A stretch of 55,825 bases of DNA from Candidatus Yanofskybacteria bacterium (GTDB lineage: Bacteria; Patescibacteriota; Minisyncoccia; 2-02-FULL-40-12; GWA2-44-9), in the NCBI GenBank assembly GCA_016185505.1, contig JACPNL010000010.1, positions 1 through 55,825 of the forward strand. Reading direction: 5' to 3'. Under the pieces are notes generated by a model. It saw only the letters and a list, made by a program, of their open reading frames with translations, had not been told where the DNA came from and searched no databases. The translations under genes and the position numbers were made by a program. Shown here one piece after another: positions 3,745-55,762 of this stretch. Every line of letters begins with the position of its first letter. Positions within the stretch are counted from its first letter, which is position 1.

Positions 3745-3804
3745 TCAAACTGTTTAATTTCGAATTTCGAATAAAGTCAAATAAAATAAGAGCCGTAATG
3801 GCTC

Positions 3805-9228: not shown

Positions 9229-9257
9229 TTGACTTTTCACATACCATTTGCTATTCT
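9229..9257 (+). promoter_or_regulatory. sigma70 promoter with no downstream ORF
   Basis: TTGACT-17 nt-TATTCT with extended TG. Confidence 0.55.
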
Positions 9258-9438
9258 TACATCATAAACGGCTTCGGCCTCGAAACACCCGCAAGGGTGT
9301 TTCAGACTTTTAGGGCTTAAAGAGCTTTTACCGCCTTATCCAGTTTATTGAATTGGTCTTCGGGCAGAGTGGCTATTTTATCTAATCCATCATCTGATTT
9401 TCTTGCGTCCCCCTTTGTGACGAATTCGGCCTATAATT

Positions 9439-9477
9439 TCGGGCCGCCCAGAGTCGAACTGGGTCTAACTGGTCCCA
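9439..9477 (-). pseudogene. orphan 3' half of tRNA-Pro(TGG)
   Basis: 39 bp matching 9712-9750 with one mismatch, beginning at the anticodon. Confidence 0.85.
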
Positions 9478-9504
9478 CCCTGAAGTAGAATTTTGCGAAT
9501 CTTG

Positions 9505-9907
9505 TCGGACTGCCCGGATTCGAACCGGGACTAACCTACAACTTTGACCTCTTTCCGTCGGTCAAGTCGCAGGCCCGCCTCATGGCTGAAAATCGCCGAT
9601 TGCGATTTTCAGCATCGCTCCGGCACTTGAATCGTAAAGAAAACATAAAGCAGTTTATGTTTTCTTTACGATTCAAGCATCCCAACCTATGGTAGAATTT
9701 GGCCTAATATGTCGGGCCGCCCAGAATCGAACTGGGTCTAACTGGTCCCAAACCAGTCGTACCACCATCATACGCCGGCCCGATTAAGAGCCAAATTCTA
9801 CCATAGGTCAAGAACGTCTCGCCTGCCCCGCACCAACCCCGCCCCCTTTTTGAATGGCGGTCAGCGGATAAGGTTGGTGCGGGGTGCTACCGTTACACTA
9901 CAGTCCG
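9505..9907 (-). tRNA. split/interrupted tRNA-Pro-like gene (5' half 9907-9884, 3' half 9535-9505)
   Basis: CGGACTG-TA-GTGTAACGGTAGCAC ... TAGTCCCGGTTCGAATCCGGG-CAGTCCG-A. Perfect 7-bp acceptor stem with Pro identity (C1-G72, A73). About 350-nt insert in the anticodon arm. Anticodon not determinable. Confidence 0.75.
9712..9782 (-). tRNA. tRNA-Pro(TGG), nested inside the split tRNA
   Basis: CGGGCCG...ACTGG-TTTGGGA-CCAGT...CCCAGTTCGATTCTGGG-CGGCCCG-A. Confidence 0.93.
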
Positions 9908-9944
9908 GTCTTAACGCAAAATTCACTACGAAACTTAATTTTTG

Positions 9945-10016
9945 TCTCCTCGCGAGGAATCGAACCTCGATTCGCGGCTTAGAAGGCCGCTGTTTTATCC
10001 GTTAAACTACGAGGAG
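9945..10016 (-). tRNA. tRNA-Arg(TCT)
   Basis: CTCCTCG...GCGGC-CTTCTAA-GCCGC...CGAGGTTCGATTCCTCG-CGAGGAG-A. Confidence 0.95.
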
Positions 10017-10336
10017 GTTGATTTTTTGCCTAAATTTAAAAACTGATTATAACTTTTACGTCTGTGACAATTGGCACATCGTATCTTGCACTTTTTAATT
10101 TCTAAGAGTATAGATCTCCAGGAATTATGTCCCGATAACATTTTTGCAATCGGCCTTCTTTTCCGACTAGGATTTATATGATCAAAATCTAGAACTCTAG
10201 GATCTTTTTCCCCACAATCAACACATTTTTTATTTGATAAAAAAGCTGCCATTTGCTCTCTTATCCTAATTCTGTATCTCTTTTGTGCTTTATATAATTG
10301 TTCCCTGTATTTGTATGGCATTTTTGGGTTATACAC
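10007..10336 (-). CDS. HNH endonuclease-like protein
   Basis: CVDCG..LDFDH..KC..RCANCH. The stop codon lies inside the 5' end of tRNA-Arg. Confidence 0.85.
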   Translation of the reverse strand: MYNPKMPYKYREQLYKAQKRYRIRIREQMAAFLSNKKCVDCGEKDPRVLDFDHINPSRKRRPIAKMLSGHNSWRSILLEIKKCKIRCANCHRRKSYNQFLNLGKKSTSS

Positions 10337-20202: not shown

Positions 20203-21360
20203 TTACAATATTATTCCCCCTCCGAGAAGCTGCTGACCTTTATAAAATACGGCTGATTGACCGGGGGTTACGGCTGACTCTGGTTTTTTGAACACGATTT
20301 CGCCACTATTTTTTACAACCGCTTTAGACAACGGCGCCCTATAGCGCGTCCGCGCATCCAACTCCTCGCCCCTGTGGATAAACGACTTGCGAAGTCGTTT
20401 ATCCACAGGTTGAGCTATTGGATTTATCCAGTTTATAGCGGTTAATTTGAAATTTTGAGAGAGTAGATCTTTCTTCGAACCGACGTAAATGATGTTATTT
20501 TTGATATCTTTCCTAACAACAAAATAGGGGCCCTTGCCGTTCTTTATATCCAGACCGTGCCTTTGGCCGATGGTATAGTAGAACACGCCATCGTGTTGTC
20601 CAACAACACGCCCTGAGCGAGCAAAACGAGTCGAATGGGCAACATCCAACAAGATAATATTTCCGATCTTTGGCTTGATATAATTTTTTAAAAATTCTTT
20701 CATGTTTAACGGCCCGATGAAGCACACTCCCTGGCTATCTTTCTTGTCAGCCGTCGACAGGCCGAATTTTTTAGCCATTCTCCTAACCTCCGGTTTTGTA
20801 TAGTCACCAATCGGAAAGAAGCAATGTTTCAACTGCCTCTGGGTTAAGGTCCAGAGAAAATAGGATTGATCTTTGTTCTGGTCAACAGCTTTTAATAATT
20901 TATAGTCATTAATTTTTAATTTTTCATTTTTATTTTTTAATTTTCTTATGTAGTGTCCCGTCGCAATGTAATCCGCTCCTTCTTCCAATGCCTTCTCCAA
21001 AAATAGCCCGAACTTGATATGCTTATTGCACATTACATCCGGATTAGGCGTTTGACCGGTTTTATATTCTCGTATCATGTAGTCAGCCACTTCTTTTTTA
21101 TATTCTTGTGAAAAGTCCCACGTCAAAAGAGGAATGCCAATTTTTGCCGCTACCCGCATCGCGTCTTCTCGGTCTTGCTTCCAAAGACACCTGTGGATAA
21201 ACGACTTCGCAAGTCGTTTATCCACAGGTGGGCTCCATGGTTTCATAAAAACACCGGTTACATCGTAACCTTGTTTTTTCAACAGAGCAGCAGCCACAGA
21301 AGAGTCAACTCCTCCGGACATAGCAACATAAATCTTTTGTTTTTTAACTTGACGTTTCAT
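20203..21360 (-). CDS. mnmA: tRNA 2-thiouridylase MnmA
   Basis: AMSGGVDSS, TPNPDVMCN, ATGHY, KDQSYFL, DSQGVCF, TPGQSAVFY. Confidence 0.98.
   Translation of the reverse strand: MKRQVKKQKIYVAMSGGVDSSVAAALLKKQGYDVTGVFMKPWSPPVDKRLAKSFIHRCLWKQDREDAMRVAAKIGIPLLTWDFSQEYKKEVADYMIREYKTGQTPNPDVMCNKHIKFGLFLEKALEEGADYIATGHYIRKLKNKNEKLKINDYKLLKAVDQNKDQSYFLWTLTQRQLKHCFFPIGDYTKPEVRRMAKKFGLSTADKKDSQGVCFIGPLNMKEFLKNYIKPKIGNIILLDVAHSTRFARSGRVVGQHDGVFYYTIGQRHGLDIKNGKGPYFVVRKDIKNNIIYVGSKKDLLSQNFKLTAINWINPIAQPVDKRLRKSFIHRGEELDARTRYRAPLSKAVVKNSGEIVFKKPESAVTPGQSAVFYKGQQLLGGGIIL
20371..20409. repeat. 39-bp palindromic element, in frame in mnmA (opposite orientation)
   Basis: Loop reads gcg on +. Encodes PVDKRLRKSFIHR. 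Confidence 0.95.
21190..21228. repeat. 39-bp palindromic element, in frame in mnmA
   Basis: Identical to 2700-2738. Encodes PVDKRLAKSFIHR. Confidence 0.95.
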
Positions 21361-23357: not shown

Positions 23358-23372
23358 AGGAGTAAATTAACA

Positions 23373-23581
23373 TAATTAACCTAATTATTCTAATTAACCT
23401 AATTGACCTAAATAAATCCTCCCGATTTTGTCTGCTTCGCAGAAACAAAATCGAGGATCCTCGATATTCGCAAGCGAATATCGGGACAATGACCTAATAA
23501 CCAATGCCTGAAGGTTTTAGACATTAAAAATTAGGTATTATTTAGAATAATTAGAGCAATTAGAATAATTAGAATAATTTT
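23373..23581. repeat. 9-nt-period foldback element with a nested palindrome
   Basis: taattattc/taattaacc/taattgacc arm versus aattagaat/aattagagc arm. Related to 42899-43043 and 46271-46413. Confidence 0.85.
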
Positions 23582-25004: not shown

Positions 25005-27044
25005 TTGATTATGATGTTACTCAATAAAAAAGCAACGCGTTTTTTAACTATTTTAATACTCTTGGTTATTTCTGGAGCTTATTTAACTTCAGATATTTCT
25101 GCCGCCCCAAACGAAGAATCAACCGTCATTCAAATAAACAATCAAAACCCCGGCCTGATAAGCAGCACTCCGGATATTTTTACCAACCTTGTTGCCTGCG
25201 CTCTGTGGCAAAAAGACAGCAACTGGGGACGAAACGGCAAACGAGGCAATCCTAACGATTTAAGCAATGACGCTATCGCCTATAAAAATTCTGCCAGCAT
25301 CGGCCTTGGCGGAGTGGATATTATTGATATTATAGGCGGCGTTGACGGACCCGACCCCCAGCCCGGTTGGATTGATGTCACCCAGCCGGGTGTTGCCGGC
25401 GTTTGGGTCAAGCCAGATCCCTGTAGCGGCGCCGGAGGGCCGCCCGGTCCGGGCGGTGGAGGCGGCGGTGTTCCAGTCGGCTCAAATCTTGGTATTAGCG
25501 GTGATACATTCACTATCGGCGGAGTTTCTAAATTTTTGGTTCTAGCTTCATATTTTGACGCCTTAGACGCTTCTAACCTCGGCGGCGATTTAGATTATCT
25601 AAAATCAAAAGGAATTGACGGGATAAGAATATTCCCGAACTGGTGGGATTTTGATCCGGATAGCCAGACCTTTAATCCCGGAAACACCCTAATGGACGTA
25701 AATGGGAATATTAGTAGTAGCCGCATGAGCGATCTGTTAAGCGTTTTAAGCGCGGCAAAGAGCAGAAACATGATAGTAGACGTAACTTTTGCCAGAGAAA
25801 CAGTGCCCGGACCATGCGACGGGGACAGAATCCCAAATGTAATGTGCATGTCCGAATTTATGGAAGGAACAGAATCGGCAGTAAGACAGATTAACTCGGC
25901 CGGATACGGCAATGTGTTTTTTGACATCCAAAACGAATTTGAACAATTCAACTTTTCAAATTCTGACTTAATAGCGATTAAAAATAGAATTAAAAGTGTA
26001 AATTCAAATTTTATAGTTTCCGCTTCAGAAGTCGGGGGCGGTTCCGGCATCGCGGTGAGCACCGGCATGGACATAGTGAACACTCACGAACCCAGAGACA
26101 ATTGGCCCTCAAGTGTCTCTAGCGTCGTCTCCTCTGCGACTTCAACCAGAAAGCCAATTTATCTTGGCGAGTCGGCCAGAGTTGGCGATGGAGCCGACAG
26201 TACTCAAGAGTTCATCACCGCTGTAAGCGATACAAAAAGAGCCGGCGGAGCGGCTTGGACTTTTCATAGCCGAGCTAATTTTAATCTGGACAACTCATCT
26301 TTACAGAACAATTATAACCAAATAGAGAAAGATTTTCTTGACCAGTTTTTGTCTTCATTAAACAGGGTCACTTGGGGCGCAACGGGAATAACGAGCGGAG
26401 GCGGAGGAACCCTACCACCCCCCGGTCCCGGCCCGGGGCCAGCGCCAGAACCATCCGGCCCTCCAATTATTAACGGCATTAGCCCGCAAAAAGCGGTCGT
26501 GGGAGAAACGGTAGAAATTATCGGTTCTAATCTGACAACATCCGTAAAACTAGAAAATCTTGAAAACGAAAATTTCTATACAATTACCGCGTTTGTTCGT
26601 CAAAATAATACGATTGCTTCCTTTCAAGTACCTGATCTTTCAGGCGGTGTTTACAAAATTTTTAGTTTAAGTCCGCAAGGAGACACGGAAAGTCCGCAAA
26701 ATCTTACAATCAGGTCAGGCGGCAATCCTTTCGGTCAGTCGGTCCAGCCCACCATCCCAACTGAAGGACTATTGGGATTCGGTCAACTTATAGCAATGAT
26801 CTTCACCTGGTCTCTCAATATTCTGGGCATTGTTGTTTTCGTAATGATATTCTTTGCCGGATTTCAGTGGTTCACCGCCGCCGGCAATACGGCAAAAGTA
26901 AATGAGGCCAAGTCCAGAATAACCAATGCGATCACCGGAGCTCTTATCCTTCTGGCGGCGTGGATAATATTATATACGATAAACCCTGATCTGGTCGGGG
27001 GCACGTTCACTTTGCCGGGGGCAGGGATAGAAAATAGTAATTAA
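25005..27044 (+). CDS. exported GH-A (GH5-like) glycoside hydrolase + IPT domain + C-terminal T4SS-type pilin
   Basis: GIDGIRIF, DIQNE, NTHEPR and PIYLGE motifs. P/G linkers. C-terminal G..WFTAAGN...AK..ITNA..G pilin-like hairpin. Confidence 0.7.
   Translation: MIMMLLNKKATRFLTILILLVISGAYLTSDISAAPNEESTVIQINNQNPGLISSTPDIFTNLVACALWQKDSNWGRNGKRGNPNDLSNDAIAYKNSASIGLGGVDIIDIIGGVDGPDPQPGWIDVTQPGVAGVWVKPDPCSGAGGPPGPGGGGGGVPVGSNLGISGDTFTIGGVSKFLVLASYFDALDASNLGGDLDYLKSKGIDGIRIFPNWWDFDPDSQTFNPGNTLMDVNGNISSSRMSDLLSVLSAAKSRNMIVDVTFARETVPGPCDGDRIPNVMCMSEFMEGTESAVRQINSAGYGNVFFDIQNEFEQFNFSNSDLIAIKNRIKSVNSNFIVSASEVGGGSGIAVSTGMDIVNTHEPRDNWPSSVSSVVSSATSTRKPIYLGESARVGDGADSTQEFITAVSDTKRAGGAAWTFHSRANFNLDNSSLQNNYNQIEKDFLDQFLSSLNRVTWGATGITSGGGGTLPPPGPGPGPAPEPSGPPIINGISPQKAVVGETVEIIGSNLTTSVKLENLENENFYTITAFVRQNNTIASFQVPDLSGGVYKIFSLSPQGDTESPQNLTIRSGGNPFGQSVQPTIPTEGLLGFGQLIAMIFTWSLNILGIVVFVMIFFAGFQWFTAAGNTAKVNEAKSRITNAITGALILLAAWIILYTINPDLVGGTFTLPGAGIENSN
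26754..27001 (+). repeat. 248-bp direct repeat copy 1 (pilin module)
   Basis: Near-identical to 28925-29172. Confidence 0.93.
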
Positions 27045-27070
27045 GTAATTAGGTAATTGTGTAATTTTTT

Positions 27071-29221
27071 ATGAAAAAATATTTACCCATCGGCTTCTTT
27101 TCTCTCCTTTATCTTTTTAGTATCTCTCCTGTAGCCGTTGCAAATACTTTGCCCGCGCCTAACCACTCTATTTTTTTTGGTTACTATCATGCGGACGCTC
27201 AATACGGCGATTTTAAAAATGAAGTCAAAGATTACACGAACACTCAAATAATTATCGGCGATAGCTGGATCAGGCCGCCTGATGTCGCGGAATCGGATAT
27301 CCAGAAATTAAACGAAGCTCTTAGCGAAACCGCCGCTCTCGGCCAAAAAATTGTTCTTATTCCTTCGGGTGATTTAGATATTATACTGAATGCGGCTGCG
27401 CCATTTTGGGATAATGTCGCGTTTATTTATTTTGCCGATGAACCGAATTGGGATAAAGCCACAACCGAGGAAAATATCGGCTCATTTAAAAATAAAATTC
27501 GCAGGGCCGGGCTTTCTCAAAAAGAAATTGCCATAAATTATACTCCTGAACAGATACTTTCAGGAACGGGGTACCAAGCCGGTAATTTGAATATAGTCGG
27601 ATTTGAAGCATATGTTGACCCCGCGCAACAAAATAACCAGGATATCGTCGCTGACTTAAACGCGCAGATAGACAATCTCAAACAAAAAATAGGCAATAAA
27701 CAAATGTTCATCGTAATTCAGGCCTACGACAGAAATGGGGATTGGAAAAATATAACCTCACTCCAAAATATTCAAATACCGCCCTATCTGGCCGCTTATA
27801 ATGACGAACGTGTCATCGGATTGCTGATGTTCTCTTATGCCAGACCGGGAGGCACGCGGGATAACCCTATCTTAGCAGAACAGCATCGTTTGATCTGGCA
27901 AGCGATGCAAGGATTAACTGTTGACGTTGATCCTAAGAATATACCGGCCGTTGCGCCTACAAGCGTCTGGAGTCCTTCTCAAACCAATAACGGCTGGTGG
28001 CCGTCTTTGTCCCCGGACGGCAAATACGTTGCCTATGGTAATTTCGGCGAGAGCTGGGTAACTGACCTTTCAACTGGACAAAACTATGACCTTTCAAAGC
28101 CAGCAGGCCTGCCAGATGGAGCCCGTTGCAGGGGCGGACAATGGATAACATCAAGCAAGGTCACTTTTATTTGCGACAGCATTCCGGGGATAACTGGATT
28201 TTACCGATATGAAGCAGCCATTGGCGAGTGGATAGCGAGAAAAACCGATGACGACCCGAACAACGTAGTGAGCAGTATATTTGTCGCAAAAGACGGCCAC
28301 TGGGCATCTTTCTTAGCTCTAACCAGAATTATTAAAGACAACACAGTCCTTACCGATAACCAACCCGGAGGGGCAATAGCCATAAGCGGTGACTTGCTAG
28401 TAAACGCCTGCACCAACGAGAACCAGCAGATCTGCGTATGGGACAGGACTAACCTTTCTACGTCTTACGATGTCAGAACTCCCTTATTTGAAATGGATAT
28501 GGAAGATGGATATATTACTTATGGCGGATTTGGACCGATCCGAGGTATAGACCCGAGCGGAAAAGATATTGATCTGACGGCAACTGCCTGGAAACGAGAA
28601 GGATCGCCAAGAGTATTAATGGTCAACGGACAACCTTGGGTCGCCACTTATACTTGGGACGACACGTTGGGAGTTTCCAACGTATTGATCCGGCCGTGGG
28701 GAGAAAGAAAAAGTATCGTCTTGCAAATGGATGCGGCATCTTTAAGCGTGGTTTACACAAACGGAAACTTCATAGTTGCGGCTAATAACGATCGGGGCGG
28801 ATTAATAGTTCAAACCATCCCCGCGGATTCGCCAAGAGTTGATCTATCAGGCGGCTTGCCGTCAGAAACACCGGGGTTAAGTCCTGCAAACAAAAAGAGC
28901 TTTTCAAGTCCGGTTTTACCCGTTATCCCCACTGAAGGCCTCCCTTCTTTCGGCCAACTTATAGCCACGATCTTCACCTGGTCTCTCAATATTTTGGGCA
29001 TTGTGGTTTTTGTCATGATATTCTTTGCCGGATTTCAGTGGTTCACCGCCGCCGGCAATACGGCAAAAGTAAATGAGGCCAAGTCCAGAATAACCAATGC
29101 GATCACCGGAGCTCTTATACTTCTTGCGGCGTGGATAATATTATATACGATAAACCCTGATCTGGTCGGGGGAGTACTTACGCTACCGGGGGTAGGAACG
29201 GAAACAGAAACTGGAAATTAA
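27071..29221 (+). CDS. exported GH-like TIM barrel + beta-propeller + C-terminal T4SS-type pilin
   Basis: Signal peptide, FADEP, PSLSPDGKYVAY (TolB/PD40-like), same C-terminal pilin module. Confidence 0.65.
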   Translation: MKKYLPIGFFSLLYLFSISPVAVANTLPAPNHSIFFGYYHADAQYGDFKNEVKDYTNTQIIIGDSWIRPPDVAESDIQKLNEALSETAALGQKIVLIPSGDLDIILNAAAPFWDNVAFIYFADEPNWDKATTEENIGSFKNKIRRAGLSQKEIAINYTPEQILSGTGYQAGNLNIVGFEAYVDPAQQNNQDIVADLNAQIDNLKQKIGNKQMFIVIQAYDRNGDWKNITSLQNIQIPPYLAAYNDERVIGLLMFSYARPGGTRDNPILAEQHRLIWQAMQGLTVDVDPKNIPAVAPTSVWSPSQTNNGWWPSLSPDGKYVAYGNFGESWVTDLSTGQNYDLSKPAGLPDGARCRGGQWITSSKVTFICDSIPGITGFYRYEAAIGEWIARKTDDDPNNVVSSIFVAKDGHWASFLALTRIIKDNTVLTDNQPGGAIAISGDLLVNACTNENQQICVWDRTNLSTSYDVRTPLFEMDMEDGYITYGGFGPIRGIDPSGKDIDLTATAWKREGSPRVLMVNGQPWVATYTWDDTLGVSNVLIRPWGERKSIVLQMDAASLSVVYTNGNFIVAANNDRGGLIVQTIPADSPRVDLSGGLPSETPGLSPANKKSFSSPVLPVIPTEGLPSFGQLIATIFTWSLNILGIVVFVMIFFAGFQWFTAAGNTAKVNEAKSRITNAITGALILLAAWIILYTINPDLVGGVLTLPGVGTETETGN
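28925..29172 (+). repeat. 248-bp direct repeat copy 2 (pilin module)
   Basis: Near-identical to 26754-27001. Confidence 0.93.
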
Positions 29222-29277: not shown

Positions 29278-29721
29278 ATGGTCTACATACTCAGCTTGAT
29301 ATTGGTTCTGAGTCTGATTTTTTCGGCTACAACCGGGGTGAGTTTTTTCGGCGATATTTGGAATAAACTGACGAGCAATATAAGCGAATTCGCTTTCCCG
29401 AAGTCCCAGAGAGAAATAGTGATAGACAACTTAAAATCACAATCAAATCTACTGGACAGGTTTTTCTCTGACACAGCGCTGGACTTGCTTCAAGACGAAA
29501 ACGTCTCTCCTGAAGATAAAAAAGCAATTCAAAAAGCCATCCAATCCTTTGGCGAATCCAAAAACCTCGTCTCCCAAATAGAAAATTTAACCAAGAACGA
29601 CAAGAGCATAACCAAGGCCCTTATTGAGAAAGTATTCGACCTGAATACCGAACCCTCACCGGCTAGCGAACCCGATCCCACCAGCATCCCCCCGAATTGC
29701 AACTTAGTGTGTGGTGAGTAG
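29278..29721 (+). CDS. exported hypothetical protein
   Basis: 147 aa with a hydrophobic N-terminus. Confidence 0.7.
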   Translation: MVYILSLILVLSLIFSATTGVSFFGDIWNKLTSNISEFAFPKSQREIVIDNLKSQSNLLDRFFSDTALDLLQDENVSPEDKKAIQKAIQSFGESKNLVSQIENLTKNDKSITKALIEKVFDLNTEPSPASEPDPTSIPPNCNLVCGE

Positions 29722-29727
29722 ATATGA

Positions 29728-30100
29728 AAAGGCCTCGCAATCACGGGGCCTTCCGGTATAGGTTACCGGATTTTGTCAGACGGCGGTGACCGCCTGAATC
29801 TGGCGGCGCCGGATGCGGGACAGACGGAGGTTTTCCGTCTTCTCGGCCGAACGCTGCCGGTTGGAACGGGGGCTGCCCCGCCCCGGTGGAACCGGCGGTG
29901 TGTCTTCTCGTATGGAGGCGGACAGGCACCCGGCTGGGTCGTTTAGCGCCTAAACCCGCCAATCAGATGGCGTATTGAATTTTATAATATGCTCGTACGA
30001 TAGCTTTATAAAAACTATATTTCTAGGTGGTAGGTCAAGCCTTCCAGGGAGCGAAACTGAGCTTGGTGAATAATCCAATTATCCCATTCATCCCCCTAAT
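29728..30100 (+). ncRNA. candidate structured RNA (about 370 nt)
   Basis: Consecutive hairpins, with G-U pairs consistent with the + strand. No credible ORF. Confidence 0.4.
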
Positions 30101-33650: not shown

Positions 33651-34806
33651 AAATAAGTTGCTTATAAAAATTTAAGGCGTCTTCATTAATATTATTCCAA
33701 GGCATCGGCCGCCTTATATCAGCATCGCTGTATTCTGCTTGACCTCTCGCCATGTCTTGAGAAATGCCCGCCTCTGACCCGTAGAAAATATTAACTGGAT
33801 TATTCTGTTCTAACTGGAAGCGTACTATTTGTTTTACTTTATCCCAATCGTGACCACATTCAAAAATTAATCTATTAAAGTCAGGGTTATCTACTACGGA
33901 AATTAACGGATAATCTTTGGGGTAAAACTTATAGTGAAGTTTGGTTAAAAATTTAGCAAAACCCCAATTTGGTTTTTTCTTTTTTGCTATCTGGCTGACG
34001 ACGATGTCCCTAAATCTAAAGTCCAGCATAGCATCAAAATGTTTTATATAATGATGTATTAACATCTCACTAGGATTGAATTTAAGAAGTGAAGAGAGGT
34101 AGAGAAAATATTTAAACTTAATTTTTAGAGTGGGGAGTTCTGTCCGCTTAAGTCCTTGTTTGACCGCTTCGCCGACCAAGATCACACCCGGAAATTCTCT
34201 TCTGACAAAATCCGTGAATTCTTTCCAAAAATTATGGGAAATTCCTAGAACGTGATCTAACCGCATCCCGTCAATTCCTTGCTTTAACCAAAATCGAGTT
34301 GCTTCAAATATATACTCACTTACCGGCGGATATTCTAAGTTTAATTTCGGTAAAGTCGTAATTTCCAGAAAACTTTTGTAGCTATCAGAAGATTTATAAA
34401 AATAAAACCACTTGCGGTATTCACTATCCTCGTTTTGTAAAGCGTCAACAAAATACGGATGTTTCCAAGAAACATGATTTATCGTCCAGTCCATTATCAC
34501 CTTCATCTCTTTTTTGTGGGCTTCCGATATTAAATTTTTAAGATCGTCTAACGTTCCGAATCTAGAGTCAACCGCGAAAAAGTCGGTTATATGATAGCCG
34601 TGATATTCTATGCCTTTGTTAAAAGGAGTCAGTAGTAAAATATCTACTCCTAGATCTTTTAGATAGTCCAAACGCTCTGTAATCCCTTTTAGATTACCGC
34701 CACAGAAATTAGGACCATCACAAATCCAAGGCTCTTTGTCTAGTTCTTTTCCTCTGGAAAAACGATCAATGAGTATATTGTAAAAAACGGCGTTTTTAAG
34801 GTTCAT
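33619..34806 (-). CDS. alpha-amylase family (GH13) glycoside hydrolase
   Basis: GGNLKGI, YHGY, DWTINH, GMRLD, LVGE. Confidence 0.92.
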   Translation of the reverse strand: MNLKNAVFYNILIDRFSRGKELDKEPWICDGPNFCGGNLKGITERLDYLKDLGVDILLLTPFNKGIEYHGYHITDFFAVDSRFGTLDDLKNLISEAHKKEMKVIMDWTINHVSWKHPYFVDALQNEDSEYRKWFYFYKSSDSYKSFLEITTLPKLNLEYPPVSEYIFEATRFWLKQGIDGMRLDHVLGISHNFWKEFTDFVRREFPGVILVGEAVKQGLKRTELPTLKIKFKYFLYLSSLLKFNPSEMLIHHYIKHFDAMLDFRFRDIVVSQIAKKKKPNWGFAKFLTKLHYKFYPKDYPLISVVDNPDFNRLIFECGHDWDKVKQIVRFQLEQNNPVNIFYGSEAGISQDMARGQAEYSDADIRRPMPWNNINEDALNFYKQLIFERKNKRWYN

Positions 34807-34818
34807 AACCGAAACTGA

Positions 34819-35421
34819 TTAAAGAAGAAGGCGCAATTTTTCTTCGACCTTTTTATCGTCTTTGTATTGCATTGCTCGCCACCCTCTGACTTCGGCAGTT
34901 TCTACATTTTGCTCACTATCATCAATAAATAAATATTCTTCGGGTTTATGACCCAACTCTCCTTCTACATATTTCCACGCTTCCGCGTCCTTTTTTGTTT
35001 TACCGATTTGATATGAAAGAAATACCTTATCAAAGACATCATAGAGACCCCTCGCGTTCATGCGCGCCGATAACGCTTCAGAGACGTTTGAGAAACAAGC
35101 GATCTCGTATTTATCTTTTAGGTTTTTTATGAGGTTAATCAGCTCGTTGTTCACTATCAAAAACTCATCATCCCAAGAGTTTAAATCTTTTTCGAGATCT
35201 TTAGCGGTACAGTGGAGATTAAAATAAGCGACGATATCGTCTATGAATTGGCTCTCTTCTTTTTCACCTGTATCTAGCCCGACCGCGGCTTTGTTGACAA
35301 AAATACCCCACTCTTCTTTGTTAATGGAGTATTTATTAAGCAACGCCTCGCCTGTTTGCTGAGGAAAATTATTTACCACTACACCAAAAAAATCAAATAC
35401 GATGACTTTAATATCTTCCAT
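34819..35421 (-). CDS. HAD-family phosphatase
   Basis: FDFFGV, FSN, K, FIDD..NV motifs. Confidence 0.9.
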   Translation of the reverse strand: MEDIKVIVFDFFGVVVNNFPQQTGEALLNKYSINKEEWGIFVNKAAVGLDTGEKEESQFIDDIVAYFNLHCTAKDLEKDLNSWDDEFLIVNNELINLIKNLKDKYEIACFSNVSEALSARMNARGLYDVFDKVFLSYQIGKTKKDAEAWKYVEGELGHKPEEYLFIDDSEQNVETAEVRGWRAMQYKDDKKVEEKLRLLL

Positions 35422-35468
35422 AATCTTAATTAAAATATACTATTTTCTATCTCAAAAATCAATTAGTA

Positions 35469-35518
35469 AACAAACCGCCGTAAAACTAGCAATTGCTAGT
35501 TTTACGGCGGTTTGTTTC
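35469..35518. repeat. perfect 50-bp intergenic palindrome
   Basis: aaacaaaccgccgtaaaactagcaattgctagttttacggcggtttgttt. Confidence 0.85.
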
Positions 35519-35553
35519 AAAATAGCCGATTTTCTGATATACTTTCACAAATA

Positions 35554-36390
35554 ATGAGAAAAATATCACTATATTTAATACTACTAATAACGGCTCTTGG
35601 GGCCGGTATTTTTATTTCTTTCATTGCTTTAAGGTCAATAAATAGGCCCGCTATCCGCCCTAGCTCGCTACCGGGGTTTGAATCAGACCCAAACGTCCCG
35701 ACTTCGTCTCCTTCGGAGCAACGAAGTCGAGGATCCTCGATTTCTCAGCCCCGCCAAGGCGGGGGAGAAATCGGGACGACTCAAACTCCAACAAAGACAC
35801 CTGGTCCCAACACAATAATTTATGACGTCCCCTTTACTCCCCAAGCGCCTTTCAGCGAATGGAGTAATCCCAAACTAAGCAACGGCTGCGAGGAGGCCTC
35901 AGCTCTTATGGCTATGTCGTGGGTAAGAGGTACAACGTTCACGCAAGAAGAAGCAAGGCGAGAAATTATCGCCGTTTCCGACTACGAATTGGCGAATCAC
36001 GGCGTGTATCTGGATACATCTTCCCAAGATACCTTTGATTGGATATTCAAAGAATATTACGGATATAACAAGGTAGAACTTTTCTACGATATTTCCGTTG
36101 AAGACATTAAAAAAGAATTGCGCGGCGGCAATTTGGTCATCGTGCCCGTGAACGGGCAGGAACTGCATAACCCCTACTACACACAGCCCGGGCCTCTGCG
36201 CCACAAAGTCGTAATAATCGGATACGATCCGGACAACAAAGAATTCATCACCAATGACCCCGGCACCCGGCTCGGAAAGCAGTACCGCTACCCGGAACAA
36301 GTGTTATTCAACGCGATACACGACTATCTGACCGGCAATGACCTCCCGTTGCCGCCAAAGCGCACCGCGATGATAGTTGTAAAAAAATAA
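35554..36390 (+). CDS. C39-like peptidase, membrane anchored
   Basis: VPFTPQAP, GCEEAS, HKVVIIGYD, NDPGT. Likely start MRKISL. Confidence 0.88.
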   Translation: MRKISLYLILLITALGAGIFISFIALRSINRPAIRPSSLPGFESDPNVPTSSPSEQRSRGSSISQPRQGGGEIGTTQTPTKTPGPNTIIYDVPFTPQAPFSEWSNPKLSNGCEEASALMAMSWVRGTTFTQEEARREIIAVSDYELANHGVYLDTSSQDTFDWIFKEYYGYNKVELFYDISVEDIKKELRGGNLVIVPVNGQELHNPYYTQPGPLRHKVVIIGYDPDNKEFITNDPGTRLGKQYRYPEQVLFNAIHDYLTGNDLPLPPKRTAMIVVKK

Positions 36391-42893: not shown

Positions 42894-42898
42894 AAAAA

Positions 42899-43043
42899 AT
42901 TAACCTAATTATTCTAATTGCTCTAATTGACCTAAATAAACCCTAATGACCGAATAACTAATGACCAAAGGTTTGAGGATTAGACATTAGAAATTGTGAT
43001 TTATTTAGAATAATTAGAATAATTAGGTTAATTAGAATAATTT
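42899..43043. repeat. 9-nt-period foldback element
   Basis: Same arms as 23373-23581 and 46271-46413. Confidence 0.85.
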
Positions 43044-43695
43044 ATTTTCGGAATACTGTCATCTTGACTCCTATAAAACTTACCACTAACGCCGCTGCCG
43101 AACCGGCGATTCCGCCGGCATTGGCCCACTGATCACTGCTCAAGTCGAACATTGGATCTAAAAAATTTACTAAACCAGAAGCTATTCCAATATTCACAAG
43201 TCCGGCGATAATGTAAGCAGTAAAAAATTTTCCCAACTCTGCGGCGTTAATTTTGTTTTCCTCGCCAGAGGCGTTAACGCCCACCAGAGGCGGGTCAACC
43301 TCTGGTTGAGAAAATACCCAGAATTTGTTCCAAAAATAACTGTGAAATGTTGCTATAATAAACGCCGACGCGACGAAAATTGAATACCATAATCCCTTAT
43401 TTATATCCGACCAAGATATTAAAACATTCAAAATCCCAAAATATACCGCCGCGTTGGTAAAACCAACAGCAGAAAATTTGCCGAACTGACCGAAGAATGC
43501 CAGCCACCGCCCCAAAAAATATCCAAGATTTACCCCCAGTATCCAAAGAATGGGAACAAAAATAATCAACCAAGCATAAGATACACTGACAAATTCCGGC
43601 AATTCAAGAAAAACAAATATCCGCCACGCGATCAAACCGGTTATGAGTCCGGTTATTACTGAAAAATAAAAATCTTTGCGAGAAAATTGATGCAC
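43042..43695 (-). CDS. GtrA family membrane protein
   Basis: QFGKFSAVG, SYFWNKFWVF, multiple TMs. Confidence 0.88.
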   Translation of the reverse strand: MHQFSRKDFYFSVITGLITGLIAWRIFVFLELPEFVSVSYAWLIIFVPILWILGVNLGYFLGRWLAFFGQFGKFSAVGFTNAAVYFGILNVLISWSDINKGLWYSIFVASAFIIATFHSYFWNKFWVFSQPEVDPPLVGVNASGEENKINAAELGKFFTAYIIAGLVNIGIASGLVNFLDPMFDLSSDQWANAGGIAGSAAALVVSFIGVKMTVFRK

Positions 43696-46270: not shown

Positions 46271-46413
46271 AAATTAAATTATTCTAATTTCTAATTAACC
46301 TAATTGACCTAAATAAATCCCAATGACCTAATGCCTAAAAACTTATTTCGCTATTTGGGTATTAGACATTAGTCATTATTTAGAATAATTAGAGCAATTA
46401 GAATAATTAGGTC
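46271..46413. repeat. 9-nt-period foldback element
   Basis: Same arms as 23373-23581, without the nested palindrome. Confidence 0.85.
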
Positions 46414-46853
46414 AATTTTTCCAGTTTCTTTCTTTCCACTAACATATTATAAAGTTCATCCACCAAAACATCATGGAACGCGTCTATGAGAGCGGGATTA
46501 TTAGACCTTACGGCTTCTTTGACGCCGTCGTCCAGTCCTTTATTGAAAACCATATTAATAAGCGCCTGAACTTTTTCTTTCAACTCCGGCAAAACATAAC
46601 TTAACGCGCTGTCGTCAAGTCCAACTTGGCCGTCGTCCTGTTGCGGCCGAGTCGAACTGGGCTGGGGCTTGGTTGGCGACGGTTGATACTGTGGGATTTG
46701 CTGTTGAATTTTTTCTCCGATAATTTCACGCAGGGTTTCTTTTTCGTGTGGCGATTCCGGCGCCACCTCGCCATGTCCCAAAGCCGCGCGCTTTTCGGCG
46801 ATCTGTTGTTCCAGTTGCGCTATCTCTTGTTCAATAGTCGGCTGATTTTCCAT
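46407..46853 (-). CDS. hypothetical protein upstream of the TraD-like ATPase
   Basis: 148 aa, NPALIDAFHD C-terminal motif. Confidence 0.75.
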   Translation of the reverse strand: MENQPTIEQEIAQLEQQIAEKRAALGHGEVAPESPHEKETLREIIGEKIQQQIPQYQPSPTKPQPSSTRPQQDDGQVGLDDSALSYVLPELKEKVQALINMVFNKGLDDGVKEAVRSNNPALIDAFHDVLVDELYNMLVERKKLEKLT

Positions 46854-47061
46854 ACTAACATTTTAACATAAATAAATTTACATTAATCAACAATGCGCAT
46901 AACTATAATTCTACGAAATTATCATATGATAATTTCGTAGAATTATTCCGAGATTAATACAAAACAAATTATCAAGTTTGAAATCAAAAACCGCCTCCGA
47001 TGGGCGGCCCAGTCAAGCTGGGCTCGCCCTCGGGGCGGTCGCCCTTCGACGATGCTCAGGG

Positions 47062-47510
47062 CTAGCTGCGCTCGGGGCCGCAGGGCGGAATGTTGACCGC
47101 CCTTTCGATCGGCCGACGCGGGTTGATCTCCAGATACTCCGCAAACCAATCCGTCCCGAACCCATGACCCTCTACACTTTCACTGAAAACGAGTTCACGG
47201 TCTAACCTGATACTTCCTTTCGGAAGTGTCGGGTCGTTGGTAACGACCCGCAGTGTCCGCCGACCGAAGTTATCGTGACGGGCGACGAACTGCGCCCGCC
47301 GCGACCGATCGGCTCCACCGAAATGGACATCGTAGACCGTCGAACCGTCCGACATCCGACAGGTGTGAAAATCGTGATACGCCACGACCTCGCCAATGGT
47401 GATGTCGGTCACACTAACCGTCGTCGAGAGACTACTGGATACGGAAAACGCGACCACGACGGCAACGACGGCGACAACGGCAACAACGGCGACGTAGTCG
47501 ATTGCTCTCA
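47062..47510 (-). CDS. GC-rich exported hypothetical protein
   Basis: AGGAGG RBS before MRAIDY, (VVA)n signal segment, own TTGACA..TATAAT promoter near 47572-47602. Confidence 0.65.
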
Positions 47511-47701
47511 TTTTTTTCCTCCTGATGCTCTGGATTGGCTGCCAGAGTGCTGCTCTCAACTGGATACTTTAATTATAACATATCCGGCACAGATTTGTCA
47601 ATAGTTCGACGGATTCGACGAACTCACCGCAGGCAAGCTCACCATAATATCTTAAAAATCGGCCTAAAAGGCCGATTTTCGTATCATTTACCAAGTATAA
47701 A

Positions 47702-51435: not shown

Positions 51436-51650
51436 GGAAAATAGTTAAGAGAGAATAGAAAATGGTATAGAAACATAGAAATAGGTTGTTGGAAATTGGA
51501 AAATGGTATAGAAAGTGGAAAATGGAAAAAGGGTTAAGAAAAAGGGAGGAAAGAAGATGAAAAAACGGTTAATTTCTATTTTCTTATTTACTAACCAATT
51601 TCTAATTTCTATCTTCCATACCAACTTCCATTTTCCATATCACCAATTTC
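51436..51650. repeat. empty foldback element (purine arm / pyrimidine arm, about 7-nt period)
   Basis: Arms resemble those flanking the four-helix-bundle gene (tagaaataggttgt, aaatggtatagaaa). Confidence 0.8.
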
Positions 51651-51676: not shown

Positions 51677-53560
51677 ATGTCATATAAAAAACTCTCCATA
51701 TTAGTAATATTAGTTGCGCTGGTTTTGTCCATAACAAGCTTGTGGGACGACTCTTTCATCGTTGATGAGGTACCTCATGTCGGAGCCGGATATTCATATA
51801 TTACAAAAGGCGATATGCGGTTAAATCCCGAACACCCACCTCTGGCAAAAGATATAGCCGGAGCAGCTTTATCTTTTCTGGCTATAGATCAAACGGTATT
51901 TTCAACACAATATTGGGTTACTGATATAAATGGACAATGGAATTTCGGAAGAATTTTGATATATAACTCATCAAATGACGTTAATGCTATCACGAGAACC
52001 GCTAAAACGACGATGCTCATATTTTTCGTATTATCGGCTATCCTGATATACCGGTGGACGCGAGAACGATATGGAGATAGGGCGGCCTTCATCGCAACTT
52101 TGTTGTTTTCTTTCTCGCCCACGGTTCTGGCCCACTCGCGTTTTGTCACCACCGATATGCCGGCGCTGTTCGGAGTGCTTCTCGGTACTTACTTTTTTAT
52201 CAAATATTTACAGAAGCCGTCTCGAAGAACATTCTGGCTCGCGGTTCTGGCATTCGGCGTTGCCCAACTAACCAAATTTTCCGTTGTGCTTCTCGCGCCT
52301 CTATTCATATTGATGGTAATCGCGTGGTGCATAGCAAATTCATTATCTTTCAGAAAGTCGGCTGTTTTAGCCACTCGCTCACTGGTGTTGATGACGACGG
52401 GAATCATTCTTGTTGTCTGGCCGGTTTACGCTCTCCATACGATGAATTATCCGCCGGAGAAACAAAGCGCCGACACGGAATTTCATCTTGGTTCTTACGG
52501 CAACCGTTTATTTGCTGATCCCGTTGTATGGGCGTCAGACAAACCAGTCATAAGACCACTCGCCTATTATGCCACCGGAATTCTTATGGTTAATCAGAGA
52601 GCCATAGGCGGCAATAACACATTCTTTCTCGGCGAAGTAAGAAACTATGCCTGGAAACATTATTTTCCCGTCGTGTATGGGATAAAGGAACCAATTGCGT
52701 TTTGGGGATTGGTGGTAATCGTACTTTTGGCTTTGAGCCTGAAGGTTAAAAATTGCCCCGCACCAAACTTTTCCGCTGACCCCGCAGGAAGTTTTCCCGC
52801 TGACCGCCAATCAGATAGAGGGCGGACTTCCAGCGGGGCAGGCCGCCATTCAGAAAAGAGGCGGGTTTGGTACGGGGTTAGTTTTTGTTTCCAATCGCTT
52901 CGCTCTTGGACAAAAACTAACTTCGTTGAGTTCTCAATGCTGTTGTGGCTCGCGATATATTGGTATTTAAGTATTCGTGCCAATTTGAACATCGGGGTTA
53001 GGCACCTACTGCCCACTTACGGGTTTGTATTTATATTACTGGCTGGCCAGCTAGAGCGTATTACGTATTACGTATTACGTATTAAGAGGAAAATAGTCCT
53101 TACTACTTACTGCTTACTACTTACTGCTTTGCTTGGTTGGTATATCGTAGATGTCGTCCGAGTACACCCCTACTATTTAACTTATTTCAATCAACTGGCG
53201 GGCGGACCGGCGGGTGGCCACCGATACGCCGTTGATTCTAACTTGGACTGGGGACAGGACTTAAAGCGGTTAGCAGACTGGGTTGAAAAACGAGGGATAA
53301 ATAAAATTCACTTGGATTATTTTGGTTGGGCTGACCAAGGTTATTATTTAAAAGACAAACTTGTATGGATAAACGCAGGAACATATAAAGACGCTCGTGA
53401 CTTTCTCGCTCAAAATCCTAATGGTGGGCATATCGCCGTATCGGCTTCATTCTACACGGGTTCACGAGGCGACCCGGTCAACAACTACATCTGGCTGGAC
53501 GCGTATCGTCCAATAGCAACTATCGGGAACTCTATATTTGTGTGGAAAATTAGACCTTGA
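51677..53560 (+). CDS. GT39/ArnT-like membrane glycosyltransferase
   Basis: DEVPH, NPEHPPL, AHSRFVTTD, DSNLDWGQDL. The upstream ORF extension is repeat DNA. Confidence 0.9.
   Translation: MSYKKLSILVILVALVLSITSLWDDSFIVDEVPHVGAGYSYITKGDMRLNPEHPPLAKDIAGAALSFLAIDQTVFSTQYWVTDINGQWNFGRILIYNSSNDVNAITRTAKTTMLIFFVLSAILIYRWTRERYGDRAAFIATLLFSFSPTVLAHSRFVTTDMPALFGVLLGTYFFIKYLQKPSRRTFWLAVLAFGVAQLTKFSVVLLAPLFILMVIAWCIANSLSFRKSAVLATRSLVLMTTGIILVVWPVYALHTMNYPPEKQSADTEFHLGSYGNRLFADPVVWASDKPVIRPLAYYATGILMVNQRAIGGNNTFFLGEVRNYAWKHYFPVVYGIKEPIAFWGLVVIVLLALSLKVKNCPAPNFSADPAGSFPADRQSDRGRTSSGAGRHSEKRRVWYGVSFCFQSLRSWTKTNFVEFSMLLWLAIYWYLSIRANLNIGVRHLLPTYGFVFILLAGQLERITYYVLRIKRKIVLTTYCLLLTALLGWYIVDVVRVHPYYLTYFNQLAGGPAGGHRYAVDSNLDWGQDLKRLADWVEKRGINKIHLDYFGWADQGYYLKDKLVWINAGTYKDARDFLAQNPNGGHIAVSASFYTGSRGDPVNNYIWLDAYRPIATIGNSIFVWKIRP
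52756..52877. repeat. nested palindromic elements in frame in the glycosyltransferase
   Basis: The outer ccccgcacc...ggtacgggg element contains a 63-bp sister element (52780-52842). The outer element matches 9822-9884 (reverse strand). Confidence 0.85.
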
Positions 53561-53564
53561 TTTA

Positions 53565-54083
53565 TAGAAATAGGTTGTCAGAAATTAGAAAGTGGTATGG
53601 AGAATGGAGGATAGAAACTGGTATTCGTATACAAGTTAGTCATTCTCATGAAAATTTTTCCATACTTCACGAAGACGAAATAGCTGACGCGAAGAACTAT
53701 CATAAGAATCTATAAGTTCACTGCAAAGTTTAATATCAATATTGTTAAAATAAACATCACGACACACAGACAGGTGGTTAATCATTTCATTACACTCACC
53801 GATTGCGTCATCAAGATATTTTTGCCAATTTTTTCTTTGGTAGCGTTTAGCGAATCCTTCCGCTAAAAGAGCGCATGGCGCTTTACAAGATCTTCTCATT
53901 TGAGATGCTAGATCATATTTTTCCTCTTTTGGCAGACGGGGAACAACCTGTGTCAAAATAATAATCTGATTTTTATAAAGTTGCTGATATACCCGCAAAT
54001 CTTGAAAACTCTTAATGGTTTTATTACCGTTATCCATTTTCTAATTTCTATACCATTTTCTATTTTCTAGCAACTACTTTCTA
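53565..54083. mobile_element. putative foldback element carrying a four-helix-bundle gene
   Basis: Imperfect inverted arms 53565-53620 and 54032-54083 enclose the ORF. Confidence 0.5.
53636..54037 (-). CDS. four helix bundle protein (23S rRNA IVS protein/bAvd-like family)
   Basis: IKSFQDLRVYQ, LPKEEKYDLASQMRRS, LAEG. Confidence 0.93.
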   Translation of the reverse strand: MDNGNKTIKSFQDLRVYQQLYKNQIIILTQVVPRLPKEEKYDLASQMRRSCKAPCALLAEGFAKRYQRKNWQKYLDDAIGECNEMINHLSVCRDVYFNNIDIKLCSELIDSYDSSSRQLFRLREVWKNFHEND

Positions 54084-54087
54084 AAAC

Positions 54088-55025
54088 AAAAGGTCCTCCA
54101 GCTCCGACTATAGCCGGAACGAGGACCGTGGGTGTTTGTACCCCTTGATTCCACCATTTCCAAGGGGCTCACTTCGCCTAGGGGCGAGAGTGAGAGCGCC
54201 GAAACCGCCAGGCGATCTGGGATTTTTAGGCCCCAGGAATTTTCAATTCGCCTCGCCTCGCGCGGTTTCGGCAATTTGGGGGGGTCACGCCATTCGGTCT
54301 CCAGTTTTTAGTGGGTCGCCCCGACACGCACCTCGCGCGCCGGACCCCGGACCTATTGACCACCGTTTTTATCGGTGGCTGGCGTGACCTTCTCGGTGGC
54401 TGAGGGACAGTGCGATTACTGGCCGGGAACTCATCATCGCCGGTGCTTCATCGTTGCACCGCCTTCAGCCATCTTTTTGGGCCCTACAATTATTTTTTAG
54501 AAATCCTCCCCGAAGAGAGTTGTATTTGAATGGGCCCGAGAGAAACCAATAAAACTTTAAGGCGATATCGTCCTTCGATCCTGTCAGACCATTAGTATCT
54601 TACTTGAATGTCTGGATTACAATGCTTTATTGGCTTGTCTCGAGCCCGTTGCCGAGCCCAAGTCTTATATAAGGTACTTGAGATATATGTTATCACATCT
54701 ATCCCTTTCTGTAAACCCTTATTCAAGGATTCACGGAAAGAGATGCTGGTTTTTTGCCGGACCAGCAAACCGTGGGAATTTGTGCTCGCGGGGGTCCCCC
54801 GCCAGTTTTATCGTTTCAAGCCCTTTTCACCTATTCCTTTCTGCCGGCTAACATATGGGAGCGCGGGCAGTACACGAACCCCGCTCCGGGTGAAAACGAG
54901 CCGCAGAACTTTTTTTACTAGCGCTTTACGATGCGCCAGCGTCCGCGGCGGTGGCATCAGTAAACCCTACGCTTAACAATGATGCGGAGGGCCTCTGGAG
55001 GGTACAGTCCTGTACCCTCCTCTGA
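54088..55025 (+). ncRNA. candidate large structured RNA (about 940 nt)
   Basis: Tightly packed long helices with G-U pairs mostly favouring the + strand. No credible ORF. Confidence 0.45.
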
Positions 55026-55045
55026 CGAAAGGAGTCGAGGTTGGC

Positions 55046-55288
55046 CTAGAGCCGAGCATTCCGTGCGTGGTTTGCCCAGCGCCGCCCGGCTAGCCGGCCG
55101 ATGGCGGGTACGTCCTCGATGGGAACGAATCGCCGAAGCGGGTCGCGTCCGAAGACGCGCTCGTCTTCCTCACGCGCCTCCTCGCATCCGAAATAGGACG
55201 CAAGGACCGCGCCGTCGTTTCGACTGTTGTCGAGGACGAACGTGCCGCCGAATTGAGCGAAATTCTGCTCCGAACCTACTCTTGCCAT
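55046..55288 (-). CDS. small GC-rich hypothetical protein
   Basis: GGAGG RBS before ATG, promoter-like TTGCAA..TGTTATAA upstream. Confidence 0.55.
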   Translation of the reverse strand: MARVGSEQNFAQFGGTFVLDNSRNDGAVLASYFGCEEAREEDERVFGRDPLRRFVPIEDVPAIGRLAGRRWANHARNARL

Positions 55289-55384
55289 TTTTGCCTCCGC
55301 GAAAAGGGTGTTAATAAGAACAAACTCGTACCCTATCTTATAACATACCCCAAAAATTTTTGCAATAGGTCAAAAATCGGCCTT

Positions 55385-55762
55385 TTAAGCCGATTTTGGG
55401 TGTTGTTCTGTCTTTTCCTCGCAATCTTTACATCGAACCGCAAAAGGCATGGCTATCAAACGCTTCTGGGATATATCCTCTCCGCAATCAACACAAAGGC
55501 CATATTCGTCTTGTTCAAGACGTTCTAGCGCCATCTCGACTTGCCTTAACTCCGTATTTCTTATTTCAATTAAACGAGCGGTAAGCTCTGGATCAAAGTT
55601 TTCTACATCGTCACTTTCTCCATTACAACTACAACTCATCCGCGCTATTCTTGACAAACCTTGGCCTTCTTCTCTAAGCTCTTGGAGCTTGCTTTGAATT
55701 TCGGTGACAATTTGTCTTTTTTGTTCTAGGAGTTTTTCTTTGATTCCATTTTTTGATTCCAC
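55385..55762 (-). CDS. TraR/DksA C4 zinc-finger protein
   Basis: ALERL..YGLCVDCGEDI..RL..MPFAVRCKDC. Confidence 0.92.
   Translation of the reverse strand: MESKNGIKEKLLEQKRQIVTEIQSKLQELREEGQGLSRIARMSCSCNGESDDVENFDPELTARLIEIRNTELRQVEMALERLEQDEYGLCVDCGEDISQKRLIAMPFAVRCKDCEEKTEQHPKSA

Follow-up and report, generated by a model that had tools for sequence, protein, structure and literature searches.

A hairpin-dense region at positions 54088-55025 of contig JACPNL010000010.1 of a Candidatus Yanofskybacteria bacterium, near the right end of the 55,825-nt stretch analyzed here (the window), may specify a new orphan structured RNA, a reading that we favor tentatively and hold at slightly under an even chance. 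The region occupies a G+C-rich island downstream of ORF80, an open reading frame (ORF) for a small conserved protein, and upstream of a gene for a four-helix-bundle protein of the 23S rRNA intervening sequence (IVS)/Avd-like family. From folding energies and sequence features, we propose an RNA that would be read from the minus strand, would form the tail of the ORF80 transcript or be processed from that tail, and would end at an intrinsic terminator. The candidate RNA would extend over ~960 nt (54083-55045, minus strand), from just past the stop codon of ORF80 to a terminator U-tract, an extent drawn from the folding, the lack of an ORF, and the lack of an Rfam match. A first-pass annotation of this DNA had proposed a candidate large structured RNA here; its dense base pairing, non-coding character, and lack of a known family have stood, whereas its lean toward the plus strand has not.

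Folding energy and strand

Using minimum free energy (MFE) folding compared with dinucleotide shuffles, we found a strong folding excess of the region for the plus as well as the minus strand (z -8 to -12), in agreement with the dense pairing noted in the first-pass annotation. The plus strand of 54088-55025 reached an MFE of -379.4 kcal/mol versus -312.4±8.2 for shuffles (z -8.1), and the minus strand -400.9 kcal/mol versus -314.2±7.3 (z -11.8), with 0 of 20 shuffles as good in either case; in a second run (18 shuffles for each strand), z was -9.1 (plus) and -9.2 (minus). All ten helices that had been listed from visual inspection were recovered in place (10 of 10 arm pairs), each in the MFE structure of at least one strand. 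Helices of at least 8 contiguous base pairs numbered 12 on the plus and 13 on the minus strand, versus 5.4 and 4.7 expected from shuffles, and perfect inverted repeats of at least 9 bp numbered 3 versus 0.40 (4 of 500 shuffles reached 3). The perfect arm pairs recovered by a repeat search were two of 11 bp (54198-54208/54262-54272 and 54997-55007/55010-55020) and one of 10 bp (54283-54292/54380-54389). Upon folding domain by domain at natural boundaries, z was at or below -3.2 in 9 of 11 domains on the minus strand and at or below -3.0 in 7 of 11 on the plus strand, while four coding control windows of equal length, folded on the minus strand, gave z of -2.7, +0.9, -0.7, and -1.5. As modeled, the folding of the region clearly exceeds both chance and the coding background, within a genome that is itself rich in hairpins.

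The two strands differed in how well their folds were defined. The minus-strand MFE lay 21.5 kcal/mol below that of the plus strand even though the shuffle means were equal, and the energies summed over domains were -373 (minus) versus -340 (plus) kcal/mol. Clear margins for the minus strand appeared at 54091-54127, 54475-54662, 54663-54745, and 54898-54952, with the reverse only at 54395-54474. The minus-strand ensemble contained 199 pairs with a pairing probability p>0.9, compared to 71.7±28.5 in shuffles (n=9, maximum 118), and its mean positional entropy was 0.51, compared to 1.07±0.16 (n=9); the plus-strand ensemble, by contrast, resembled its shuffles (113 such pairs versus 86±43; entropy 0.90 versus 1.01±0.24). 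Single mismatches within helices read as G-U on the minus strand 3 to 4 times and on the plus strand once, which are small numbers, and appositions at helix ends carried no strand signal (10 G-U versus 12 A-C). Because the minus strand has the lower MFE, an ensemble sharper than its shuffles, and a terminator at its 3' edge, we consider the region most likely to be read on this strand, as far as energy, ensemble definition, and terminator prediction can indicate.

Domains and 3' end of the candidate RNA

Read 5' to 3' on the minus strand, the predicted fold opens with three 5'-proximal hairpins at 54898-55022 (z -3.3 and -3.7), including a perfect 10-bp hairpin at 54997-55020 that forms an inverted repeat. 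Farther downstream, a long hairpin domain at 54663-54745 folded to -25.9 kcal/mol (z -4.3) on the minus versus -17.5 kcal/mol (z -1.8) on the plus strand. The largest domain (54475-54662) comprises a long imperfect stem with 30-nt arms of 80% complementarity and inner hairpins including a cUUCGg loop; it reached -66.9 kcal/mol (z -7.1) on the minus versus -53.2 kcal/mol (z -4.0) on the plus strand, and pairs with p>0.9 formed in it on the minus strand only. The adjoining domain at 54395-54474, closed by a helix of 7 bp (12 bp on the plus strand), was the only one more stable on the plus strand (-32.9 kcal/mol, z -3.4, on the minus versus -40.0 kcal/mol, z -5.2). Two multibranch domains follow, both closed by perfect helices that form inverted repeats: one at 54277-54395 with a closing helix of 10 bp (z -3.3 minus, -3.1 plus), which on the plus strand alone lengthens to 15 bp by including 3 G-U pairs, and one at 54197-54273 with a closing helix of 11 to 12 bp, whose 11-bp repeat is 100% complementary (z -4.5 minus, -5.0 plus; p>0.9 on both strands). 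Two abutting hairpins at 54141-54195, a 7-bp stem with a 13-nt loop and an ~11-bp stem with a tetraloop (z -3.3 minus, -3.1 plus), precede the 3' end.

At this end (54083-54127, minus strand), a G+C-rich hairpin with its stem at 54127-54092 is followed by the U-tract TTTTGTTTT at 54091-54083, the arrangement of an intrinsic (Rho-independent) terminator. The hairpin folded to -24.7 kcal/mol on the minus strand (z -5.6, 0 of 60 shuffles as good) versus -16.1 kcal/mol on the plus strand, and it was the sole terminator-like site on the minus strand between the ORF80 stop and the four-helix-bundle gene.

The linkers between units measured 0 to 4 nt across 54141-54662, several of the units being multibranched with closing helices of 7 to 13 bp. 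Since the pairs with p>0.9 reached across at most 180 nt (minus strand) and 116 nt (plus strand), the fold amounts to a chain of local domains; the long-range helices of the plus-strand MFE structure were not confident. In the modeled ensemble, the architecture is thus one of ~12 abutting local domains and not a globally closed fold like that of RNase P or an intron. Comparing the domains with one another, we found neither similarity nor tandem duplication. The heptamer CTAAAAA (CUAAAAA in RNA), a motif chosen after inspecting the sequence, occurred three times in unpaired minus-strand positions versus 0.22 expected (1 of 2000 shuffles reached 3), and runs of at least five A numbered 7 versus 3.06 expected (23 of 2000 shuffles), with no T-run.

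Coding potential and known RNA families

The region is non-coding. Its longest ORF, of 122 amino acids (aa), had no Pfam match and no homologue, and no frame spanned the region under translation table 11 or 4 or with TAG or TAA read as glutamine. The first-pass annotation had called so long an ORF-free stretch unusual; it is the second longest in the window without an ORF of 90 aa, but it does not stand alone, the stretch at 8869-10006 being longer.

No known RNA family accounted for the region either, in line with the failure of the first-pass annotation to recognize RNase P, transfer-messenger RNA (tmRNA), or group I/II introns by eye, none of which matched the region in Rfam. At the gathering threshold, Rfam 15 returned only 4 tRNAs for the whole window; at E<=0.5, it returned 13 matches in the window, of which 5 were credible (all tRNAs) and none lay in the region; and at E<=10 over 53500-55400, it returned 6 chance-level matches, the best with 21 bits versus a gathering score of 80. 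The Rfam models of OLE, GOLLD, ROOL, HEARO, and raiA did not match the region, and ARAGORN found no tmRNA. Our literature search retrieved no described large RNA of bacteria of the candidate phyla radiation (CPR), nor any account of the present element.

In A+T-rich genomes, structured RNAs have been sought by using long intergenic regions of high G+C content as a criterion, as described in PMC8632094. The present region is 53% G+C (55% when ORF80 is added), in a window of 43% G+C that also holds other G+C-rich patches.

ORF80 and the proposed transcript

ORF80 (55046-55288, minus strand) encodes 80 aa at 63% G+C and is preceded by a GGAGG ribosome-binding site at 55293-55297. The protein had no match in Pfam, PHROG, or NCBIfam and no lead in the ESM Atlas; neither ORF80 nor a long-form relative matched phages or plasmids by tblastn. 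It has 7 homologues at 55 to 81% identity, all metagenomic, within a family of 29 cluster representatives (E<=1e-3) that share a conserved N-terminal core, FGGTFV...EE(D/E)ERVFG.DPLRRF. Nineteen family members measured 69 to 109 aa, three 115 to 136 aa, and eight 189 to 244 aa, the last with an extra C-terminal domain of ~130 aa; a single match of 1376 aa in the family listing is probably spurious. A genome scan with the ORF80 alignment gave 432 pattern matches, with one locus confirmed, an 11-kb locus (L001) in a metagenome-assembled genome of Candidatus Liptonbacteria. There, a 115-aa relative (9893-10240; 56% identity over 52 residues) lies between gatB and miaA, and its gene is 63% G+C versus 52% for its genome. 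In both host genomes seen, the ORF80 family member is richer in G+C than its host.

The simplest reading of the Yanofskybacteria locus would be a single minus-strand transcript of ~1.25 kb, in which ORF80 is followed by ~960 nt of structured RNA. Transcription would start upstream of ORF80 at a promoter-like site, TTGCAA-N17-TATAAG (55337-55365, minus strand), that we read by eye and that lies beyond the terminator of the dksA gene; our promoter scan did not list this site because its rule requires a T as the last base of the second hexamer. We saw no promoter-like site in the gap that separates the stop codon of ORF80 from the first hairpin. The polymerase would run through ORF80 and then through ~960 nt devoid of a minus-strand terminator, and would stop at the hairpin and U-tract of 54127-54083, just ahead of the four-helix-bundle gene's promoter module. 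While being made, the RNA would fold into about twelve abutting stem-loop and multibranch domains with no single closed core, and it would be either a long, structured 3' tail on the ORF80 message or an RNA cut from that message. The likeliest role for such an RNA would be that of a scaffold for protein binding, with the basic tail of ORF80 and the Avd-like four-helix-bundle protein as candidate partners.

Alternative explanations

The alternative that survives best, which we consider somewhat unlikely, holds that the hairpins are DNA-level palindromic debris without RNA function, consisting of unique inverted repeats that sit, together with ORF80, on a G+C-rich, horizontally acquired island. 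Such debris could stem from remnants of mobile-element ends or from quasi-palindromes perfected by template switching during replication. A number of our observations weigh against an RNA, many of them in favor of this explanation. The strongest helices are perfect Watson-Crick stems and both strands have high z scores, which palindromes at the DNA level would also produce, and when G-U pairs were forbidden, the two strands folded almost equally (-336.1 kcal/mol minus, -332.6 kcal/mol plus). G-U pairs, which the first-pass annotation had taken to favor the plus strand, were in fact near symmetric between the MFE structures (36 plus, 33 minus). The surrounding DNA is itself rich in palindromes, with 84 perfect inverted repeats of at least 9 bp in 54 kb, and the 3 in the region stand against a density of 1.46 per 938 nt elsewhere in the window, amounting to only ~2 times the window average. 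Multi-copy palindromic elements, some of them within genes, occur elsewhere in this genome, as do G+C-rich patches and the giant hairpins at 9001-9938, a tRNA and palindrome cluster that folds more strongly than the region (z -14.6); another folding hot spot lies at 34801-35738 (z -5.5). In fixed 200-nt windows, which cut across domains of 80 to 190 nt and have a window background of mean z -0.8 (sd 1.9), the five-window z sum of the region ranked only 15 to 19 of 275. Since the window is palindrome-rich in general, part of the folding signal could reflect a genomic habit and not selection on an RNA.

Further points count against the RNA from its own properties and from its lack of relatives. 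Adenine made up 0.439 of unpaired minus-strand positions versus 0.434 in shuffles, hence giving neither a strand nor an RNA signal; the stretch at 54743-54900 folded no better than shuffles on either strand (z of its halves -0.5 and -0.3 minus, -1.1 and +0.3 plus); and there was no confident long-range closure, unlike in most catalytic or ornate RNAs. Blastn of 54040-55330 against phage and plasmid collections gave no match, and neither these collections, a self-search of the window, nor the Liptonbacteria locus yielded a homologue or paralogue of the region, the only repeat recovered in the self-search for a paralogue or a pair of template and variable repeats (TR/VR) being an AT-rich module beside the four-helix-bundle gene. 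Likewise, the translated 122-aa frame and a stop-free frame of 100 aa had no similar protein among 5.8 billion predicted proteins, not even a self-match, indicating that gene callers had not called them. At the Liptonbacteria locus, the ORF80 relative is followed by a plain terminator and no structured region, which means that the RNA is not an obligatory companion of the ORF80 family and which fits debris as well.

Four features of the region speak, on the other hand, against palindromic debris. No hairpin of the region recurred elsewhere in the window (55.8 kb) or in the Liptonbacteria locus (11 kb), whereas the known palindromic families of this genome are multi-copy. Relative to shuffles, the ensemble was far better defined on the minus strand but not on the plus strand, a difference that pure DNA palindromes would not give. 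The region ends in a strand-specific terminator, and its domains abut with linkers of 0 to 4 nt over ~600 nt.

A structured RNA on the plus strand, transcribed from a plus-oriented copy of the AT-rich module at 53564-53629 and running antisense through the four-helix-bundle gene, appears quite improbable. Its folding excess (z -8.1 to -9.1) is substantial, the promoter-like module lies ~480 nt upstream, two closing helices are longer on this strand via G-U pairs (15 versus 10 bp and 12 versus 7 bp), and the domain at 54395-54474 is more stable by 7 kcal/mol. Yet, its MFE is 21 kcal/mol weaker than that of the minus strand, and its ensemble, as given above, is no better defined than shuffles. 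Moreover, the plus strand has two sites of a hairpin with a U-run within the region (54208-54229 and 54788-54811), while a terminator scan found none at the plus-strand 3' edge near 55020-55050, such that a plus-strand transcript would enter ORF80 in antisense.

Decayed coding sequence, be it the lost C-terminal domain of the ~200-aa long forms of ORF80 (8 of the 29 representatives, relative to which ORF80 could be truncated) or an unrelated pseudogene, is very improbable, given that tblastn of 34 proteins against 54000-55400 found only ORF80 (best others E 0.007 to 0.04), with no frame of the region matching the long-form C-terminal domain, that no frame tested had a Pfam match and none was open under other genetic codes, that gene decay would not make a sequence fold at z -8 to -12, and that short forms like ORF80 account for 19 of the 29 representatives.

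Comparison with known systems and significance

Bacterial non-coding RNAs (ncRNAs) of more than 500 nt beyond rRNA are, to our knowledge, very few, and OLE, GOLLD, and ROOL each led to unexpected biology. The genomes of CPR bacteria are tiny and hold little DNA to spare, which is why the keeping of ~1 kb of tightly folding non-coding sequence would imply a function. The four-helix-bundle (23S_rRNA_IVP/Avd-like) family is, as far as we know, otherwise tied to rRNA insertions and to the template RNA of diversity-generating retroelements (DGRs), with no known role alone, and the position of the region beside such a gene is suggestive. If the hairpins are instead DNA-level palindromes, they would be ordinary acquired junk in a palindrome-rich genome. 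The boldest form of the RNA reading, which we regard as improbable, would make the region the first member of a so far undescribed class of structured RNAs of ~1 kb in CPR/Patescibacteria, produced as the tail of the ORF80 message and acting as a modular ribonucleoprotein (RNP) scaffold whose A-rich CUAAAAA loops and dozen domains bind ORF80, the Avd-like four-helix-bundle protein, or both. Such an RNA would provide the very common 23S_rRNA_IVP family with its first RNA partner outside rRNA insertions and DGRs.

OLE is described as an ornate ncRNA of ~600 nt that forms an RNP with the OLE-associated proteins OapA to OapC (PMC3413148, PMC7936274, PMC9723947). Like OLE, the region is a candidate for a large, highly structured bacterial ncRNA within a gene cluster and adjoins candidates for small partner proteins. 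Unlike OLE, it has no Rfam OLE match, it resides in a CPR-like host and not in a Gram-positive extremophile, and its neighbors are ORF80 and the four-helix-bundle protein in place of the Oap proteins. GOLLD and ROOL are described as giant ornate, self-assembling RNAs of 0.6 to 0.8 kb (PMC12286853). The region (~0.95 kb) shares their size class, their many helices, and the lack of a known function, but it differs from them in that it matches no Rfam model, has neither a tRNA nor a prophage as its context, and is predicted to fold as a chain of local domains without a confident long-range or multi-way core.

REP/BIME-type palindromic units are multi-copy and mutually similar. The region resembles clusters of such units in its head-to-tail hairpins between co-directional genes, in a genome with other palindromic elements, but each of its hairpins is unique within 55 kb and its domains are mutually dissimilar. 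In CPR bacteria, 23S_rRNA_IVP ORFs have been reported inside insertions of both 16S and 23S rRNA genes (PMC11270868), which portrays the four-helix-bundle family as one habitually found with structured RNA genes. The adjoining of this family and a structured RNA candidate is a loose parallel only: no rRNA is present here, the four-helix-bundle gene lies past the terminator of the candidate RNA and not within the RNA, and the repeats flanking the gene look like promoter modules.

Neighboring genes

The window resembles a piece of the chromosome of a CPR/Patescibacteria-type bacterium. Pfam searches of its ORFs identified alaS, dus, RNase Y, iPGM, mnmA, dnaX, two PMT-family glycosyltransferases, and type IV pilin-domain proteins, and it carries five tRNA genes. 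The close neighbors of the region all lie on the minus strand. Upstream of ORF80, a dksA/traR zinc-finger gene (55385-55762, minus strand) has a hairpin terminator at 55373-55397. Immediately downstream of the region, past the terminator of the candidate RNA, lies the four-helix-bundle gene (53636-54037, minus strand), whose product matched PF05635 (E 6.7e-15), TIGR02436 (E 2.7e-14), and the PHROG 'Avd protein of DGR' (E 3.3e-5).

A promoter-like AT-rich module of ~50 nt (54034-54083, minus strand) contains the start codon of the four-helix-bundle gene and abuts the terminator. It takes the form TTGnnA...TATAGA-like and ends in GAAAATGG. An inverted copy lies on the other side of the four-helix-bundle gene (53564-53629), and a third copy is found at 51437-51528, before the start of a PMT gene; the start codons of both the PMT and the four-helix-bundle genes are included in the module. 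As the third copy sits directly before a gene start, the module looks like a promoter/leader, and it probably is one and not the end of a mobile element.

Within the window, we did not find the components of a DGR around the Avd-like gene. A reverse transcriptase domain was present in 0 of the 49 ORFs scanned, in a window that ends 780 nt beyond the region; no part of the region had a second copy in the window, such as a TR/VR pair would provide; and the Avd-like match of the four-helix-bundle protein was weak (NF033474, 17 bits versus a cutoff of 80).

Other repeats and composition of the window

The longest ORF-free stretch of the window (8869-10006, 1138 nt) contains the strongest folder, 9001-9938. 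It holds tRNA-Pro and tRNA-Arg, repeats resembling a tRNA 3' half at 9422-9477, 9488-9543, and 9695-9750. It also contains perfect hairpins of ~25 bp, two of which, as a pair, flank tRNA-Pro. A near-perfect 44-nt palindrome occurs three times (2699-2742, 20370-20413, and 21189-21232), each time within an ORF that is intact (one copy in alaS, two in mnmA), where it is read in frame as ~16 residues that share the core PPVDKRLAKSFIHR. We take these copies to resemble the palindromic elements that Rickettsia carries in frame.

At 29651-30000, past a gene ending at 29721, lies a second intergenic cluster of hairpins that is rich in G+C (59%) and has no Rfam match; the whole 490-nt gap around it folded with z -2.7, with 2 of 100 shuffles as good. 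G+C-rich (58%) patches at 3801-5175 and 46951-47500 coincide with ORFs lacking a Pfam match (3805-5181, 458 aa, and 47062-47559, 165 aa), indicating that the genome sampled by the window is compositionally patchy. At 25005-29221, two adjacent paralogous genes of ~700 aa each carry a terminal type IV secretion pilin domain, and their 3' ends have in common a 256-nt repeat of 91% identity (26778-27033 and 28949-29204). Finally, arrays of a AATTAGAATAATTAG-like 9-nt unit occupy three intergenic regions (23365-23581, 42898-43044, and 46275-46419).

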